64,000 bases of DNA, taken from assembly GCA_016928875.1 (NCBI GenBank), contig JAFGJY010000089.1, positions 3,625 through 67,624 on the forward strand. The letters run 5' to 3'. The notes under the pieces were generated by a model that saw only the letters and a program-made list of their open reading frames with translations, had not been told where the DNA came from and did not search any database. A program made the position numbers and the translations under genes. The stretch comes from Candidatus Omnitrophota bacterium. GTDB taxonomy: Bacteria; Omnitrophota; Omnitrophia; JAHJGZ01; JAFGJY01. Positions 282 to 5,835 of the stretch are shown here, one piece after another. How positions within the stretch are numbered: the stretch's first letter is position 1; each line of letters begins with the position of its first letter.

Positions 282-509
282 TTATCGATCGATGTTTACT
301 GTCCCCGACCAATCAAGTTCAACTATCTCATGCGGGTCACCAATAAGACACGCTCTTTTCTTGAGACGAGCAAGCTTACCGATTGTCTCCACTCGAACGA
401 CCTGCAACAACTTCCCTTGGTATTCGAAACAGAACGACTCGCCTGACGTTGCCACCTTGTCAAGCAAACTGTAAATATTCTTACGAAATTGCGTTATTGA
501 CATTACCAT
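282..509 (-). CDS. Phd/YefM-family type II antitoxin (75 aa)
   Basis: MVMSITQFRKNIYSLLDKVATSGESFCFEYQGKLLQVV is typical of the Phd/YefM N-terminus. AAGGAGG lies 5 nt upstream of ATG 509. The ORF-track start at 590 would overlap the upstream gene. No toxin ORF follows (73..281 has no ORF). Confidence 0.7.
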   Translation of the reverse strand: MVMSITQFRKNIYSLLDKVATSGESFCFEYQGKLLQVVRVETIGKLARLKKRACLIGDPHEIVELDWSGTVNIDR

Positions 510-519
510 GCGTGCCTCC

Positions 520-966
520 TTATTCCAATTCGGCGTTCCTGACATCTTTGGCATGAAAACCGATCTTCTTCTTTGGCTGTACGTCTTCATGCCTCATAGC
601 CTCGATTATCTTAAAGATCTGAATGATCGCATCACGGTTTTCCTTTACCATTTTCGTCAACTCTTCATTCGTTGCTAAGAACTCTCGCATCTTTACAAAC
701 GCGCGCATGATCTGAATATTTATCTGGATTGCTCTTTTACTGCGCAATACGCTGGAGAGCATCGCCACACCTTCTTGCGTAAATACATGCACAACCTTTG
801 AGAATTTGATCTCTGAGGATATCACAGATTGTGATATCCTCATGACTTCATCTCGCGTTAATTGAAATATAAAGTCCGCAGGGAATCGATCGACATTTCT
901 CCTTACTGCCTGATTTAAAATCCTTGTTTCAACACCGTACAAAGCTGCCAGATCGCGATCTAACAT
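520..966 (-). CDS. ORF6N-domain (KilA-N-like) DNA-binding protein, C-terminal 148 aa of a split gene
   Basis: Starts MLDRDLAALYGVETRILNQAVRRNVDRFPADFIFQLTRDE, the core ORF6N motif. The expected preceding ~27 aa are encoded at 1259..1339. Confidence 0.8.
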   Translation of the reverse strand: MLDRDLAALYGVETRILNQAVRRNVDRFPADFIFQLTRDEVMRISQSVISSEIKFSKVVHVFTQEGVAMLSSVLRSKRAIQINIQIMRAFVKMREFLATNEELTKMVKENRDAIIQIFKIIEAMRHEDVQPKKKIGFHAKDVRNAELE

Positions 967-1221
967 TCACCCTGTGAAATAAGATTTGAGCCGATTCCTG
1001 ATAAACATCTTTCCATAATATGTCTTCAAATATTTTTCCCGTTTTATTACATCTCGTTGGCAAAGACACGCTTCATAATAGATCAATCTCAATGGCAATC
1101 TATGGCTCGTAGAATCCACCTTCCCGGAAACATGTTGCTCAAATCTTAATTTCAAATTTTGGGTATATCCCACATACATATTTTTATCCTTAACACTATG
1201 TAACACATAGGTATAAAACAT
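967..1221 (-). CDS. GIY-YIG nuclease family protein (84 aa, URI domain only)
   Basis: FYTYVLHS..NMYVGYTQNLKLRFEQH...REKYLK shows GIY/YVG, Arg and Glu spacing typical of small COG2827-type GIY-YIG proteins. Its TGA (967..969) abuts ATG 966 of the ORF6N C-fragment. Confidence 0.85.
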   Translation of the reverse strand: MFYTYVLHSVKDKNMYVGYTQNLKLRFEQHVSGKVDSTSHRLPLRLIYYEACLCQRDVIKREKYLKTYYGKMFIRNRLKSYFTG

Positions 1222-1258
1222 GATAACATCTCAAAATTTGAAATTATTTCACAGGGTA
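967..1258. mobile_element. 292-bp GIY-YIG mini-element bounded by terminal inverted repeats, inserted into the ORF6N gene
   Basis: Perfect 14-bp inverted repeat accctgtgaaataa (969..982) / ttatttcacagggt (1244..1257), 15/16 if extended to 16 bp. Removing 967..1258 joins ..LLIRGKRV to MLDRDLAALYGV.. and restores a canonical ORF6N reading frame. Confidence 0.7.
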
Positions 1259-1339
1259 AACTCTTTTCCCACGAATAAGTAAGATCTTATTCCCCACGAT
1301 CTCTACGGGAACTATGTCGTTTGGCTGTTTTTTATTCAT
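1244..1339 (-). pseudogene. ORF6N N-terminal fragment (27 native codons plus 4 element-derived codons and a stop)
   Basis: ATG 1339 gives MNKKQPNDIVPVEIVGNKILLIRGKRV, then YPVK and TAA inside the element TIR. This is too short for the ORF track. Confidence 0.7.
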
Positions 1340-1455
1340 AGCCTCATAGGATTTAATTATTTAATTATTGCAATATATTATTGCTATTTTACCAATGTTA
1401 AAAAGCAATGCAAATGATTTATGCAATTACAATATCTCTTTTTATTGTATCCACC

Positions 1456-1614: not shown

Positions 1615-2964
1615 TCACCATTTCCTCCCGACCCCGGCCACGAGCTCGCACGCCTTCTCTGACGCCAGCCCGCGCACGAACGCCTGCCCTGCGCCATTGA
1701 ATAGCTCTCGCTTAAGCTCCACCTCGATCCCGAGGTCCTTGCCGCGAACTGTCTTGAGCCTTGCCGAACATTCCGTATGGTCTGTAAGCGTACACGTGGC
1801 GCCAAACATAATACTGTAGACCGCACCATCACGATAGGTTATCTCAAAGATAAGCCCGAGTTTTTTGCTCACCCGCCATTTCCCCTTAAGAATGACCGTT
1901 CTCAGTGAAGGTTTCATCCCGACGCCGAGCGTGTACACCAACGCGCGCTTTTTTGCATCATACCGGCCGTATTCGACACTGAACTCAAGCCTCGTCTCGT
2001 CATCACCCTCCACCATATAGGCGATCCTGTTTCTATCGAGCACATCCCAATGCCCCTTGAGCGTAAGTGAGCGTGTTTCTTTTCGCGGCCCTTGCACATA
2101 TTTGTAGATGATCTCGTGGTGCTTATTTATTTCCCATTTTCCCCGAAGCTCAAGTTTATCGGAACGCCCGGCCGTGCGTTTAACGTCAAATGAAAGTTTA
2201 TTATATTTATTTACCTTCAAAGTTCCCGAGAGTGAAAGTACGTAAATCGTCTCCTTGCCGCGTGAATTTTTTGTCGTAAGCGCAACGCCGATCTTCCCGC
2301 CCTCAAGTGTGATCATCTCACCCGAGAGCTTTATCGTCTCAAGCCCGGTTTTTGTCCGCGTCCCTTCAAGCCGGTAGATAAGATCATGCTGCTTATCCAT
2401 CGCCCACGTCCCCTTGATCCTGATCTTCTTAAGCCCCTTGCCATCACGAGGACTATTATATTTTTCTGCCATCCTGGCGCCTTTTATTTCACTGTCATCC
2501 TGAGCCGAACGAAGTGAGGCGAAGGATCCAGGATAACCGTTCACATTGTTCGCATAACCTAGATTCTTCGCTTCGCTCAGAATGACAGCTTTGTCGTCCC
2601 CGCGCACTCCCATGTCGTCCCCGCGCACTCCCATGTCGTCCCCGCGCCTTTTTACGTCGTCCCGGAAAGCCGAAGGCTTATCCGGGACCTCGGTTCCTAG
2701 ATCCCGGCTCTTTCTTCTCCGCTGAAGCTTCGAAGCAACAATTTCTACGAAGCCTTGGCGAAGTAGAACGGCCGGGACGACGTTCTGTTCACTAACAATC
2801 CCCGCCCCCGTCACCGTATACACCAGCTGATTTCTCTTATCCACCGAGAATGTCCCCTCAGCGACCGTCCTGAACCCCGCCATCTTCCTGCCAAGCCCGG
2901 GCATATTCATGACCAGCCTGTTCTCAGGATCGATCTCGTATTTTATTTTTGTCTTTGTTTTCAT
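1615..2964 (-). CDS. Hypothetical beta-repeat protein (5 copies of an L.GxW....h.L.Y motif) carrying an in-frame repeat insertion
   Basis: Start MKTKTKIKYEI at 2964 (the ORF-track start at 3057 lies in the palindrome cluster). Repeats: AEGTFSVDKRNQLVYTV, IKGTWAMDKQHDLIYRL, LRGKWEINKHHEIIYKY, LKGHWDVLDRNRIAYMV, LKGKWRVSKKLGLIFEI. No family recognised. Confidence 0.6.
   Translation of the reverse strand: MKTKTKIKYEIDPENRLVMNMPGLGRKMAGFRTVAEGTFSVDKRNQLVYTVTGAGIVSEQNVVPAVLLRQGFVEIVASKLQRRRKSRDLGTEVPDKPSAFRDDVKRRGDDMGVRGDDMGVRGDDKAVILSEAKNLGYANNVNGYPGSFASLRSAQDDSEIKGARMAEKYNSPRDGKGLKKIRIKGTWAMDKQHDLIYRLEGTRTKTGLETIKLSGEMITLEGGKIGVALTTKNSRGKETIYVLSLSGTLKVNKYNKLSFDVKRTAGRSDKLELRGKWEINKHHEIIYKYVQGPRKETRSLTLKGHWDVLDRNRIAYMVEGDDETRLEFSVEYGRYDAKKRALVYTLGVGMKPSLRTVILKGKWRVSKKLGLIFEITYRDGAVYSIMFGATCTLTDHTECSARLKTVRGKDLGIEVELKRELFNGAGQAFVRGLASEKACELVAGVGRKW
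2493..2589. repeat. Hairpin MITE family A, copy 1 (inside CDS 1615..2964, in frame)
   Basis: tgtcatcctgag...gaaggatccaggata...ctcagaatgacagc with terminal inverted repeats and an internal gaaggatc/gattcttc stem. Translated as AVILSEAKNLGYANNVNGYPGSFASLRSAQDDS. Confidence 0.85.
2593..2688. repeat. 21-bp half-palindrome stutter array ending in a full palindrome (family B-like)
   Basis: gtcgtccccgcgcactcccat starts at 2593, 2614 and 2635 (period 21), then gtcgtcccggaaagccgaaggcttatccgggac (2656..2688; gtcccgg/ccgggac stem). Translated in frame as RGDDMGVRGDDMGVRGDD. Confidence 0.8.
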
Positions 2965-2970
2965 TTTATT

Positions 2971-3012
2971 ATTGGTGTCAGACACCGGTGTCAGGCACCA
3001 GTGCCTGACACC
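2971..3012. repeat. Cluster of GGTGYCWGRCACC palindromes
   Basis: attggtgtcagacacc (2971..2986), then ggtgtcaggcac-ca-gtgcctgacacc (2987..3012, perfect 12-bp arms). Related copies lie at 4201..4219 and 60943..60960. Confidence 0.7.
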
Positions 3013-3022
3013 ACGTGTATCG

Positions 3023-4189
3023 TTACTCCGTATACACCCTCGCCAACCCCTGATCAAGCAGTTCCTGATTTAAAAACGCCCCTTCCCGTGCCACACGCGC
3101 CGCATCATCCGCACCCGGCATATAGAATACATCGGCAAGATACCGCCCGTACTTATCAGCCTTGAACGTCCGTATCACGATCACCCGTTGCTTAGAATCC
3201 GTCTCCCCTTTTAAGGCGTAAAGCCTCGTTGAGGCAACGCCTCTTTTCGAGGGGAGTGTCGCGGAGCGACGAGGGGTTTTACGTTCAGACGCTTGCCCCT
3301 TGACCCTTGCACCTTGGCCCTTCACACCAAGCGCTCTTTCCACGTATTCCTTGGCCCTACGCCCCAGGATCGATTCTTGTTCAGGAGCATCGATCCCGCG
3401 TAAGCGTACTTTCATCTCGATCCACGTATAAAAACCAAGGTCGATCCGTAGGACGAGCGTATCGCCGTCAATGACTCGCGCAACCTCCGCCTTATAAATG
3501 TAGAGGTCGGCAGATCTGTTCACATCAGTGCCGAATGAAAATACCGCGCCATCCTTACGCACATGCGCAATATTCGATGCATTCTTATATTTGTTCTTAC
3601 AATCGATCTCGCGGTCAATACCAAATCCAAGATCGATGATCGCCCGCCGTTTCTCTTTCATAAGCTGGGGATTAAACCGCACGCGATAATAATACAACGT
3701 ACCGCGCGTAAACGCGATAACCGGCCGTTCTCCTCCCGGCCCGATCAACTCGACCCGGCACTCTTTCTGCCGCCTCAGGTCGGACATCAACTGTTGGAAC
3801 TGCTTAGGCTTGATCTTCTCGCGCCTAATGCGCGCCTCGAGCCGGCCCCGTTCACGGCCATCATCGATCGCGATCAGCACCTTATAATGCGTCCAATGCA
3901 GGCCATCATCGGGACACACCGGATAGAGCCGCTGGAATTTCGCGATCGAATAAAAATACTTCGTGCTGCTCTGATCAAAATCGCGTGTAAGCAAACGGAT
4001 GGTCTTCGCCCTCTCTGCCGCAGTCAGATCTGCCTCCATAACATGCTCATTGAGAACCTTGCCGATCCGCCAATACATGGCCACAAGCTCCTTACGCGCC
4101 GCATCCTCAACATTGACCCGCGCCCGTTCGAACTCAGACCTGATCGAATTACGTATCGTCGTGTACCGTGATTTTTCGAGGGTTTTCAT
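3023..4189 (-). CDS. DUF1016_N-like domain fused to a thermonuclease (SNase) domain
   Basis: N-terminus KELVAMYWRIGKVLNEHV...FYSIAKFQRLYP resembles the YhcG/DUF1016 N-domain. C-terminus VIDGDTLVLRID...KVRLRGIDAPE...ADKYGRYLADVF...LLDQGLARVY carries the SNase Ca/catalytic motifs. ATG 4189 overlaps the TGA of the upstream gene (ATGA). Confidence 0.75.
   Translation of the reverse strand: MKTLEKSRYTTIRNSIRSEFERARVNVEDAARKELVAMYWRIGKVLNEHVMEADLTAAERAKTIRLLTRDFDQSSTKYFYSIAKFQRLYPVCPDDGLHWTHYKVLIAIDDGRERGRLEARIRREKIKPKQFQQLMSDLRRQKECRVELIGPGGERPVIAFTRGTLYYYRVRFNPQLMKEKRRAIIDLGFGIDREIDCKNKYKNASNIAHVRKDGAVFSFGTDVNRSADLYIYKAEVARVIDGDTLVLRIDLGFYTWIEMKVRLRGIDAPEQESILGRRAKEYVERALGVKGQGARVKGQASERKTPRRSATLPSKRGVASTRLYALKGETDSKQRVIVIRTFKADKYGRYLADVFYMPGADDAARVAREGAFLNQELLDQGLARVYTE
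3188..3328. repeat. ~141-bp structured insertion translated in frame within the SNase domain
   Basis: It encodes GVKGQGARVKGQASERKTPRRSATLPSKRGVASTRLYALKGETDSKQ between the conserved ..EYVERAL and VIVIRTFKADKYGR segments. It contains the nested palindrome ctcccctttt aaggcg..gcctcgttgaggc..cgcct cttttcgaggggag and a 7-bp-periodic block ccccttgacccttgcaccttggccc. Confidence 0.6.
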
Positions 4190-5835
4190 AGGATATTATC
4201 ATTGGTGTCAGGCACCAATTGCTTTTTCTTGTAAATCAATATCTCGGGCGGAGGAAATTCGAGCGGCACATTGACATGGATGTAAAATCTTTTGACAACT
4301 TCGTACGGACTATCCTTTTTCATAAATACATCGTCATAAAACATGAATATTTCTGGCGTCGGACATGAATAACGATACCATTCGTTGGCGTATTTATCAT
4401 CGAGAACATAGTCTTCGTTCACCTTGTTATCTTTGATCGATTCTGTGACTTTATCGATATCATCCTGCCGCATAATTATGATGTCAGGATATTCTAATAA
4501 ATTCTTCTCAATGTATCGGTTAAAATCGAACTTTGGCATCCGCCAGGCATGCGTTTTCCACGTGTATTGCTCTGACACTGACCCCACGCCTACTGTCGTC
4601 CCTGCTGGTATAGTTTCTTCAATGTATTGTGAAGCAGTGATACGAGTATCATGAAGGCGTAAATATATCCCCGATACACAAGAATATATTGAAGAGCATA
4701 TGGTCAGAAAAACAAAGCTCCATCCTGCTATTTTCATGAATACATGTTTAGAACCAATAAACTGACAACACGTATATGCCGCGATTAAACATAAGAACGG
4801 TGCTATGGTCGCTATGTACCTAGCGACCGTGAAATAGCGCCAGAACATATAATATGCAATTAAAAAAACTACGAGTAAAAAAGCGTGAGGCCTCGCACCT
4901 CTTATAGAATAAAATAACCCTATGAAGGCAAGTACCGTAACATAAAGCCCCACTGCGATTCTTGTTTCCTCATACCATTGACAGATAACGTTCACCCCCA
5001 AGGATCGATACCGGTCTACCCAATGGATCTTCTCTCTGGTATAGAATCCCACATAGCCCGAAATGTCGCGAAAAATATGGGGATGAAATAAAATAAATAC
5101 AATACCTCCGACCAACAAAGATATACAAATTAACTTTAGCTGTCGGAAAAAGACTATTTGGTTAAAACCATCCTTTCGAAAAGCGGGCAATAAAAAGAAT
5201 ATACACGCAGGCGCTACGAACATTCCACTTGTTATCTTGGTCCCCATCAAGAGACCGATACACATACCGAATATCAAACTGCTGCCGATCGATTTCTTAT
5301 TATATAGATGTATAAATGAAATGAACGTCAGCAATAAGAAAAACCCCATCGTAATATCAACGGTACACAATGGACTATTTAACACATGATAGAATGAGCA
5401 ACTCAAGAATGCAGCCGCAATGATGCCTGTCATTGGGCTGAATAGCTTCTTTCCTAAAATATACACCAAATAAAGTGACCCCGTGCCGAATATCACCGAC
5501 GCTAATCTTCCCATTATTATTGCGATCAATTTATAGTAATCTCGTGCTGATAATATTTTTACAACAATGAACTTTATGGGCAACATAACCATCCCAACGA
5601 TATATTGCATCGTAGTACCATACGCAGGAAATTGTGATGTCTCCAGATAGACCGACGGGAAATTAATTATGGTCGTATACAATTTCACCTCGTCTGGATG
5701 GAATCTTTTTGAATATAACCCGATCGGAACCCCCCACGAAATAGGGATTATTCGCAAACAAAAAGACAACACCATTAAAACAAATATTAAATTATTATCT
5801 TTTATAAAATCCTTCACGACGCGTAACGTATTCAC
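4186..5835 (-). CDS. Membrane GT-C glycosyltransferase (GT39/ArnT/PMT_2-like)
   Basis: 549 aa. The N-terminal two thirds is polytopic membrane, with an early FHPDEVKLY loop, followed by a soluble C-terminal domain. The tail ..QLVPDTNDNIL is encoded by the palindrome at 4201..4219. Confidence 0.6.
   Translation of the reverse strand: MNTLRVVKDFIKDNNLIFVLMVLSFCLRIIPISWGVPIGLYSKRFHPDEVKLYTTIINFPSVYLETSQFPAYGTTMQYIVGMVMLPIKFIVVKILSARDYYKLIAIIMGRLASVIFGTGSLYLVYILGKKLFSPMTGIIAAAFLSCSFYHVLNSPLCTVDITMGFFLLLTFISFIHLYNKKSIGSSLIFGMCIGLLMGTKITSGMFVAPACIFFLLPAFRKDGFNQIVFFRQLKLICISLLVGGIVFILFHPHIFRDISGYVGFYTREKIHWVDRYRSLGVNVICQWYEETRIAVGLYVTVLAFIGLFYSIRGARPHAFLLVVFLIAYYMFWRYFTVARYIATIAPFLCLIAAYTCCQFIGSKHVFMKIAGWSFVFLTICSSIYSCVSGIYLRLHDTRITASQYIEETIPAGTTVGVGSVSEQYTWKTHAWRMPKFDFNRYIEKNLLEYPDIIIMRQDDIDKVTESIKDNKVNEDYVLDDKYANEWYRYSCPTPEIFMFYDDVFMKKDSPYEVVKRFYIHVNVPLEFPPPEILIYKKKQLVPDTNDNIL

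Follow-up and report, generated by a model that had tools for sequence, protein, structure and literature searches.

Three kinds of described mobile unit come closest to the element analysed here: free-standing GIY-YIG homing endonuclease genes (seg and mob of phage T4, with I-TevI as the enzymatic model); the intervening sequences of 23S rRNA genes, which are found in Leptospira and Coxiella with an S23p / 23S_rRNA_IVP open reading frame (ORF; PMC4990558); and hairpin-dependent single-strand transposons, as represented by IS200/IS605 and REP/RAYT. We describe an insert of 292 bp that splits an ORF6N gene within a 64,000-nucleotide stretch (the window) of contig JAFGJY010000089.1 (forward-strand positions 3,625 to 67,624; assembly GCA_016928875.1) from a Candidatus Omnitrophota bacterium. 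The insert is very probably an intact copy of an autonomous mobile element of ~290 bp, made up of a short leader and a single 84-codon GIY-YIG gene that encodes a catalytic core only. In its way of working, the element most resembles a cross between a free-standing homing gene and a hairpin-dependent single-strand transposon; in appearance, it is like a 23S rRNA intervening sequence. What is new here is a three-way junction with covariation, recent spread, recurrent split sites and hairpin derivatives in a widespread nuclease-only element. A full-text literature search, with most subscription journals outside its reach, found no description of the element, its fold or its targets.

As in homing genes of the T4 seg/mob type, the mobile unit is essentially a GIY-YIG nuclease gene, which inserts precisely and without target duplication, recurrently occupies one site in homologous genes that are older than itself, is co-oriented and co-transcribed with host genes, and is able to split a host gene. 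Unlike the free-standing homing enzymes, which comprise ~200–250 residues including a DNA-binding domain, the element protein has 84 residues and consists of the core only. In further contrast to such genes, the element has ends that pair, together with internal codons, into a conserved three-way junction; ORF-less hairpins exist, near-identical copies occupy unrelated sites, and there is no long sequence-specific target. The element also resides in the chromosomes of many phyla, and collections of phages and plasmids contain virtually none of it. With the 23S rRNA intervening sequences it shares the format of a small selfish unit with a terminal stem around a single small ORF, as well as a sporadic, horizontally spread distribution (PMC4990558). 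It differs from them in that its ORF encodes a nuclease rather than a four-helix-bundle protein, in that it lies in protein-coding genes and between genes rather than in rRNA helices, and in its two extra helices, which use coding sequence. It often interrupts genes of the IVP family, the very family that the intervening sequences encode.

IS200/IS605 and REP/RAYT likewise insert without target duplication at a short fixed target, rely on intrastrand pairing as the cis signal, are very small, and have hairpin-only non-autonomous relatives scattered in genomes. Unlike IS200/IS605, the element has no HUH (Y1) transposase, its ends pair mutually instead of forming one subterminal hairpin each, and its nuclease chemistry lacks a covalent intermediate for strand transfer. 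Terminal inverted repeats at its limits (14–17 bp in the window; 148 loci), near-identical copies at unrelated sites and miniature derivatives recall insertion sequences, which differ in having target duplications and a known transposase class. By sequence and fold, the nearest solved relatives of the nuclease are Slx1 and the UPF0213 (URI-only) proteins. Slx1 is a nuclease that cuts branched DNA, and the element forms a branched fold; however, Slx1 serves in cellular repair, carries a RING domain and has Slx4 as its partner, and the solved UPF0213 proteins have no described mobile context. Finally, GIY-YIG-encoding insertions in rRNA genes of the candidate phyla radiation (CPR) are reported to resemble neither group I nor group II introns, to be sparse and to occupy poorly conserved sites (J Bacteriol 2024, PMC11270868). 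These insertions may be relatives of the element family, although none of the 160 element loci examined lies inside an rRNA gene (one, L067, is located 1.3 kb downstream of a 16S gene).

Insertion in the ORF6N gene

The N-terminal fragment of the host gene is read on the minus strand from 1339 to 1244 as MNKKQPNDIVPVEIVGNKILLIRGKRV, followed by YPVK and a TAA codon (1246..1244) located within the element. The C-terminal fragment (966..520) begins MLDRDLAALYGVETR, and its start is the native Met28 directly after the nuclease stop, in the sequence TGAATG. The insertion point lies between codons V27 and M28, that is, between T and A of GTT|ATG, and the element has the same orientation as the interrupted gene. 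When joined, the two fragments yield a protein of 175 residues that matches the ORF6N profile over positions 1–86 of 86 (Pfam, E 7e-29); the C-terminal piece by itself covers profile positions 12–86, and the segment 1259..1339, which is 97% identical in DNA to the intact homologue, completes it. These results agree with an initial annotation made from the sequence alone, which had correctly placed, to the base, the N-fragment, the nuclease ORF and the C-fragment, as judged by sequence and ORF reading. It had also recognised the two pieces as ORF6N, the 84-residue GIY-YIG protein as the sole ORF of the intervening 967..1258 (confirmed here by ORF listing and, at 54 bits, by Pfam), the stop codon that the upstream repeat provides to the N-fragment, and the nuclease TGA (967..969) abutting the ATG at 966.

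The closest ORF6N homologues, P0002 and P0003, read KILLIRGKRVMLDRDLA without a gap in the protein alignment, RV being directly followed by MLD as the initial annotation had predicted for intact genes. In the DNA of P0002 (locus L081), which is 90–97% identical to the window across the 5' region and the junction, the empty site is CGTGGGAAACGAGTT|ATGTTGGATCGCGATCT within ..GGGAAAAGAGTTATGTTAGATCG.., and its window counterpart is CGTGGGAAAAGAGTT / ATGTTAGATCGCGATCT. Because the L081 sequence ..GAGTT|ATGTT.. is uninterrupted, the 292-bp limits are exact, with no base duplicated and none lost; accordingly, comparison of the filled window site with this empty allele revealed no target-site duplication. 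The element runs from 5'-TACCCTGTGAAATAA to TTATTTCACAGGGTGA-3' (5' end TACCCTG...; 3' end CAGGGTGA).

A perfect inverted repeat of 14 bp (969–982 / 1244–1257) delimits the insert, as described initially; the extension given at that time, 15 matches over 16 bp, is replaced by 17 bp with one mismatch (966–982 / 1244–1260). No further copy of the repeat was found elsewhere in the 64-kb window, in which the nuclease gene is also single-copy, and consensus matching found no promoter-like or terminator-like site inside the window element. Both halves of the split ORF6N gene in the window are translatable because the native ATG follows the insertion point. The same claim does not extend to the family in general: in the majority of split 23S_rRNA_IVP genes, the element is not followed by a start codon.

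Distribution and recent movement

Relatives of the 84-residue protein make up 4,454 clusters at 90%, most of them exactly 84 residues long and ~70% identical, from Bacteroidota, Patescibacteria, Desulfobacterota, Omnitrophota and others. In total, 160 loci were fetched, 80 from species-representative genomes and 80 from metagenomes, and the ends could be mapped in 148. In all 148, the same ends flank the homologous nuclease gene, namely TT[CT]ACCCTGT[GTC]AAATAATTTTAAAT at the 5' end, before the gene, and CTCAAATCTTATTT[CAG]ACAGGGT[AG]A at the 3' end, which is the gene terminus. The 80 loci taken from species-representative genomes, in which there are at least that many, represent Bacteroidota, Patescibacteria, Desulfobacterota, Gammaproteobacteria, Bdellovibrionota, Planctomycetota, Nitrospirota and Ignavibacteriota; isolate genomes and independent assemblies are among the carriers, and CPR (Patescibacteria) genomes are major ones. 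Carriers that have been cultured include Psychroflexus longus CAK8W (L072), Ancylomarina sp. DW003 (L008) and Marinifilum caeruleilacunae (P0124). Carriage by phages or plasmids was rejected on the basis of a single match in 2.9 million viral contigs and the lack of any among 50,697 records of phages and 72,556 of plasmids.

Since no relative more than 80% identical to the window element appeared in the metagenome scan, recent movement was demonstrated with other members of the family. The elements of L144 and L152 are 100% identical, with left flanks 74% identical and right flanks unrelated, and identity stops at TGA|A. Those of L124 and L125 are 97% identical within flanks of 74–79% identity, those of L099 and L119 are 97% identical within flanks of 74%, and those of L101 and L103 are 94% identical within unrelated flanks. 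For the trio L107, L119 and L099, the synonymous divergence (dS) of the element is 0.09–0.28, compared with values from 0.55 to saturation for the host genes, whose ratio of nonsynonymous to synonymous divergence (dN/dS) is ~0.1. The element moves, and has done so recently, entering one and the same site in homologous genes that have diverged as well as AT-rich TT|A sites that are unrelated.

Derivatives without an ORF (repeat-loop-repeat), 29–101 nt in length, occur in at least 12 loci and fold as hairpins; they retain the element ends, including the T-R-A triplet that no longer serves as a stop codon. One ORF6N gene (L021) contains both a full element (2463–2758, after ..EKIENS) and a 47-nt hairpin (3158–3205, after ..RAIEI), and all three of its coding pieces are open and conserved. 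The exact empty allele, the copies within diverged flanks, the many split genes and these ORF-less derivatives support the earlier interpretation of the window locus as a captured insertion of a repeat-bounded mobile unit. One refinement of it concerns the terminal repeat, which is no simple pair of protein-binding ends but the closing helix of a conserved three-way junction. An old resident gene with a regulatory RNA structure, its presence within ORF6N being due to a one-off rearrangement or an assembly artefact, would fit the single copy in the window and the lack of close relatives in the metagenome scan. This explanation is contradicted by the exact empty allele of L081, by identical elements within diverged or unrelated flanks, and by many independent split genes in independent assemblies, isolate genomes included; it is therefore extremely improbable.

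Several loci showed individual arrangements. The 283-bp elements of L144 and of L151/L152 are identical and their left flanks homologous (N-terminal part of an IVP gene, 74%), and the right flanks are unrelated from exactly one base past the element TGA, which looks like a rearrangement breakpoint at the element 3' end. The same pair of genes encloses the element in L010, from a Bdellovibrionales metagenome-assembled genome (MAG), and in L013, from a MAG of Moraniibacteriota (CPR), the upstream one ending ..EHPEAGIT.. and the downstream one starting ..KKIIH.IQSLGNGGCENMLLR..; this likeness reflects either whole-segment transfer between phyla or a binning error. Two 100% identical elements in L159 (1963–2252 and 3576–3865), 1.6 kb apart and with identical flanks as well, reflect either the duplication of the entire segment in tandem or an artefact of assembly, and not an independent insertion. 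Protein P0122 (134 residues) consists of two diverged GIY-YIG element ORFs fused in frame. The first ends ..KYFKTGF and the second resumes T-RDLKSRFEQH, so that the join falls in the P3/P2-forming sequences (see below) and suggests recombination or nested insertion at the junction.

Three-way junction formed by the element ends

The terminal repeat constitutes one arm, the closing helix P1, of a perfect three-way junction. Two inner inverted repeats abut it, which pair 1232–1246 with 1147–1161 (15/15) and 1137–1151 with 977–991 (14/15). RNAalifold independently returned the same junction as the helix test, with no unpaired junction bases, and detected no conserved helix beyond P1, P2 and P3 (Table 1). 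Pairing and coding are superimposed: the leader pairs in P1 with the codons for Y-F-T-G and in P2 with those for N-L-K-L, and in P3 the codons for K-L-R-F-E pair with those for L-K-S-Y.

Covariation was evaluated over 36 pairs in an alignment of 69 elements, using 500 column shuffles and partners slid by 1–3 columns as controls. Across the three helices, 93% of cells were paired, and both-sided changes were found in 19 of the 36 pairs. Compensatory cells numbered 167, compared with 38.7 ± 5 in the shuffles (0/500 reached the observed value) and 16–43 in the slid controls. In P1, for example, G/T/C at 1250 covaries with C/A/G at 976; the codons TTA-AAA-TTA / CTC-AAG-CTA covary with the leader; and in P3, AGA/CGA (Arg) covaries with TCT/TCG (Ser), both changes being synonymous. 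Given that covariation occurs at synonymous sites, selection acts on the nucleic acid. The window copy folds with −42 kcal/mol as DNA (z = −6.6) and with −80 kcal/mol as RNA (z = −3.8). Wobble counts, which are weak evidence on DNA versus RNA, were 40 for G-T pairs and 62 for A-C mismatches. That G-T is not the commoner of the two is what selection for Watson-Crick pairs only, in DNA or on both strands, would give, and leans against RNA. A group I or group II intron or a small ribozyme was considered and rejected, as Rfam returned no match even at E up to 10 and the junction has no unpaired core and is not hammerhead-like.

The pair beside the A-CCC / GGG-T core (window 1258 and 968) was anti-correlated with Watson-Crick pairing among 132 non-redundant elements. 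It sets the first base of the element against the middle base of the stop T-R-A, and the combinations were C/A 49, T/G 34, T/A 22 and C/G 1 (~15 expected). T-G and C-A are pairs of wobble geometry, and the ORF-less hairpins obey the same rule. Judging from these sequence counts, this non-Watson-Crick pair may be a recognition feature next to the putative cut site. A palindromic target was rejected: a few loci (L056, L044, L074) have long complementary flanks, but pairing beyond −2/+1 was at chance (35/132 at −3/+2).

Table 1. Features of the split ORF6N locus and of the three-way junction, in window coordinates.
Feature	Position	Strand	Basis and remarks
Mobile element, 292 bp	967..1258	(-)	Limits from uninterrupted homologue L081 and protein alignment; ends common to 148 other loci
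ORF6N N-terminal 27 codons (host)	1259..1339	(-)	ORF reading, Pfam, homologue alignment, empty-site DNA
ORF6N C-terminal 148 codons (host)	520..966	(-)	ORF reading, Pfam, homologue alignment, empty-site DNA
GIY-YIG nuclease gene, 84 codons + TGA (969..967)	967..1221	(-)	Pfam PF01541
P1 5' arm ACCCTGTGAAAT	1246..1257	(-)	12 bp, 1257-1246 with 980-969 (RNAalifold); perfect inverted repeat 1244-1257; covariation, 97.7% of cells paired
P1 3' arm ATTTCACAGGGT	969..980	(-)	Also codes for nuclease C-terminus ..YFTG
P2 5' arm AATTTCAAA	1237..1245	(-)	9 bp, 1245-1237 with 1156-1148 (RNAalifold); 5' untranslated part; reaches 1232 in window copy; nine pairs, compensatory changes
P2 3' arm	1148..1156	(-)	Within codons ..NLKL.. 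of catalytic motif
P3 5' arm	1139..1147	(-)	9 bp, 1147-1139 with 989-981 (RNAalifold); within codons ..KLRFE..
P3 3' arm	981..989	(-)	Within codons ..LKSY..
Promoter-like hexamers upstream of ORF6N	1372..1414	(-)	Consensus matches only; region conserved in L081

Target genes and insertion sites

Split genes were identified in two ways, namely by joining the flanks at limits like those of the window element, with a tolerance of ±2 nt, and by placing the translated flanks on family hidden Markov models (HMMs), with the names TIGR02436 and TIGR04256 taken from NCBIfam. Genes for 23S_rRNA_IVP proteins (four-helix bundle, TIGR02436) are split at HMM positions 52|53 (N-I|A-E-G) in ~20 non-redundant loci, and also at 56|59 and 72|73. 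PDDEXK_3 genes (GxxExxY, TIGR04256) are split at 33|34 and 90–92, and ORF6N genes at 17|18, 26|27 (the window), 110|111 and ~160. The joined proteins gave single full-length Pfam matches. IVP, PDDEXK_3 and ORF6N genes in the flanks are on the nuclease strand in 50 of 50 loci and never on the opposite strand, the sole antisense case being an RHS/YD-type gene (L008, L018). The flank consensus comprises only R-T-T|A. Elsewhere, the element sits in co-oriented gene arrays (124 loci checked): a long ORF starts within 12 nt of the element 3' end in 45 loci, often as TAAATG or TGAATG (opposite-strand control, 3), and in 43 an upstream ORF continues into the element, where it terminates within the 5' arm. 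At the IVP target, intact genes read AAT ATT GCT GAA GGA and filled sites AAC ACY | ... | A(CA) GAA GG, which suggests that the flanking codons were co-converted or altered.

These target sites bear on a classical explanation, in which the element is a free-standing homing endonuclease gene. Its product, perhaps as a dimer or with a host partner, would make a sequence-specific double-strand break in empty alleles, recombinational repair would follow, and the three-way junction would act in RNA, where it would restrict or time nuclease translation or contribute to transcript stability or processing, with no role in the recognition of DNA. Occupation of the same IVP codon position (HMM 52|53) in ~20 diverged genes, an element much younger than its hosts by dS, the lack of target duplication and the unusual adjoining codons (NT|TEG instead of NIAEG in intact genes), which co-conversion would leave behind, are all in line with homing. 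So are the sense orientation and the lack of a promoter-like site of its own, which fit promoterless homing genes, and the fact that the RNA fold is also significant. Nevertheless, an 84-residue catalytic core without a DNA-binding domain and a flank consensus of just R-T-T|A are difficult to reconcile with sequence-specific cleavage, and homology-dependent homing cannot produce 94%-identical copies in unrelated flanks. Moreover, the ORF-less hairpins keep their ends though there is nothing to translate, and G-U pairs are not enriched, unlike in usual RNA helices. Overall, we regard classical homing as the main rival account of the element, though a somewhat unlikely one.

The strictly sense orientation in the three host families is also what an element resembling an intervening sequence or an intron would show. 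P1 would then be cut in the transcript, for instance by RNase III, and in the boldest form the flanks would be rejoined, with DNA mobility following a separate route. The terminal complementary stem around one small ORF, as in the 23S rRNA intervening sequences (PMC4990558), the GIY-YIG-encoding non-intron insertions reported in CPR rRNA genes (PMC11270868) and the L021 ORF6N gene, with its three open-framed and conserved pieces, point in the same direction. On the other hand, RNase III cutting destroys an mRNA and does not repair it, none of the 160 loci is inside an rRNA gene, and the element has neither a ribozyme core nor a conserved helix beyond P1–P3; furthermore, the open frames may merely reflect recent insertion and the method by which split genes were detected. 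In addition, no mRNA ligation pathway of this type is known to us in bacteria. This explanation thus appears improbable.

Genes for 23S_rRNA_IVP, PDDEXK_3 (GxxExxY), ORF6N and GIY-YIG proteins co-occur, sometimes in tandem, in islands of small multi-copy genes (L034, L099, L110, L145, L161 and others). The IVP host genes themselves showed no convincing inverted repeats on their borders. A distinct arrangement was observed in dTDP-glucose-dehydratase / epimerase-like genes of Bacteroidota, in which the left junction falls in the Rossmann motif (GGAGF|IG; L047:1785-2234, L060:2255-2755, L065:2332-2833, L076:2371-2821 and L028:2442-2830). There, the element is followed by a second copy of the 5' untranslated region and the first 13 codons (~84 nt), and hence by an intact gene, giving the order X-E-X, with X for the repeated segment and E for the element. 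The X copies are 100% identical in three genomes and 79–81% identical in two, and in L060 and L065 the upstream X copy also carries the last ~50 nt of an element. X-E-X could be a long duplication, a tandem (E+X) array or the rescue of an essential gene.

Nuclease and proposed mechanism

The 84-residue product scored 54.4 bits against PF01541 over residues 1–71 (Pfam cut-off, 22.6), and Y5, Y16, G18, R26, H30 and E62 are invariant among 25 diverse members. An AlphaFold (AF2) model of the protein had a pLDDT of 95. Profile comparison with the Protein Data Bank (PDB) identified 1ZG2 (UPF0213 protein BH0048; E 1e-7) and 1YWL (E 7e-6), and Foldseek ranked 1ZG2 first, followed by six Slx1 entries (7CQ2, 6SEI and 4XM5 among them), ahead of I-TevI and UvrC. 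Identity to relatives of the UPF0213/Slx1 type is only 23–29%. Pfam and the AF2 model revealed no DNA-binding domain, the 84 residues being the catalytic core only, and no transposase of a known class (DDE, HUH, Ser, Tyr) is present, as GIY-YIG is the sole element ORF. With a dN/dS of 0.03–0.15, the gene is under strong purifying selection, and the nuclease is conserved and probably active.

We tentatively propose, at a little short of an even chance for the mechanism as a whole, a scheme in which the fold functions at the DNA level, the base of P1 is cut by the nuclease and repair copies the element. The element would be read from the host-gene promoter, given no promoter-like site of its own. 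Its leader, the catalytic-motif codons and the last seven codons would pair when the element strand is single-stranded, either on the replication template or in a heteroduplex from which it loops out opposite an empty homologous gene. The three-way junction would then form, and its closing helix P1 would join the two ends in space; P2 and P3 would serve to draw together the P1 arms, which are 260 nt apart. ORF-less derivatives would need neither P2 nor P3 because their arms are only 20–30 nt apart. As the nuclease has no DNA-binding domain, we propose that it recognises, in an Slx1-like manner, the branched fold and not a long sequence. It would cut at the P1 base, TT^YACCC ... GGGTRA^A, and repair would copy the element into the empty strand, resulting in homing among paralogous small genes. 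Occasional capture at unrelated AT-rich TT|A sites would amount to transposition without target duplication.

We infer the action of the fold as DNA, its cutting by the nuclease, the place of the cut and the joining of the copy, and several observations weigh against this scheme. The Foldseek E-values to Slx1 are modest (9e-3 to 6e-2). Covariation cannot separate DNA from RNA, and host flanks can contribute no more than 1–2 bp of pairing (TT / A). A single empty site at DNA level defines the putative cut positions, with protein-level junctions elsewhere differing by 1–2 nt, and the single codon occupied in diverse IVP genes is as expected of a classical sequence-specific homing enzyme. Finally, GIY-YIG enzymes form, to our knowledge, no covalent intermediate, which leaves the joining step with no catalyst that we know of.

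The joining step is also the point at which a non-autonomous cassette deserves consideration, whose folded ends would be recognised by another enzyme (HUH, tyrosine or serine recombinase, or integron-type), with the GIY-YIG protein as cargo, such as a defence or repair nuclease. The chemistry of GIY-YIG enzymes includes no joining step, and derivatives reduced to the hairpin persist or move although they have no ORF. In addition, single-strand transposons driven by HUH enzymes typically insert at a short fixed target and do not duplicate it. Yet the ORF is always present in the ~290-bp units, is under strong purifying selection, and is tied to the cis structure, in that its codons take part in two of the three helices. 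The carriers belong to many phyla without an obvious common recombinase, and no such gene is nearby in the window. Integron attC sites, whose core sites are RYYYAAC / GTTRRRY, were rejected, since the element ends TTYACCC / GGGTRAA do not match that consensus. We therefore judge a cassette to be quite improbable, and retain the cutting of a DNA fold by the element's own nuclease as a working proposal.

Surroundings of the locus in the window

With few exceptions, the long ORFs of the window lie on the minus strand. The spacer that separates a 480-residue ORF (3057..1615) from the ORF6N promoter region contains short direct repeats at 1453–1602: three copies of a ~33-nt unit rich in ATGAAC / CATGGAC (1453–1567) and a 14-nt tandem repeat, ATTCGTAATTNCTA (1575–1602). 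Just downstream of ORF6N, on the same strand, is an ORF that is weakly similar to Phd/YefM antitoxins (E 1e-3, below the cut-off). Same-strand neighbours (window 282–590 and 1615–5835) include the 480-residue ORF, which has no Pfam match, a protein with DUF1016_N and SNase domains, and a PMT_2 glycosyltransferase.

Significance

In Bacteroidota, Patescibacteria, Desulfobacterota and related MAGs, few unexplained ORFs are as common as the small genes annotated as 'GIY-YIG nuclease family protein'. At least the 84-residue subfamily drives, or is carried by, a discrete mobile unit whose ends are defined and whose activity is recent, and many seemingly truncated ORF6N, four-helix-bundle and GxxExxY genes can be re-annotated as interrupted. 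Speculatively, and on the doubtful side of our expectations, the element would represent a new class among the mobile elements of prokaryotes and might, at ~290 bp, be the smallest that is autonomous; in it, a bare GIY-YIG core would find the three-way junction of its own gene rather than a DNA sequence, a 'fold-and-cut' mode with host-assisted copying. An even bolder variant is that the fold is removed from transcripts, such that the interrupted genes still work.

The element links three poorly understood 'selfish small gene' families with the old puzzle of rRNA intervening sequences. One 84-residue protein and a 30-bp three-way junction make a compact, testable system, which raises the question of how a nuclease free of a binding domain chooses its site. 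If recognition is indeed directed by structure, DNA mobility would gain a new principle, and the system could serve as a minimal tool for insertion. If fold-and-cut is true, it would provide a biological role for the abundant URI-only GIY-YIG proteins, and a hint as to how elements of the intervening-sequence type move.

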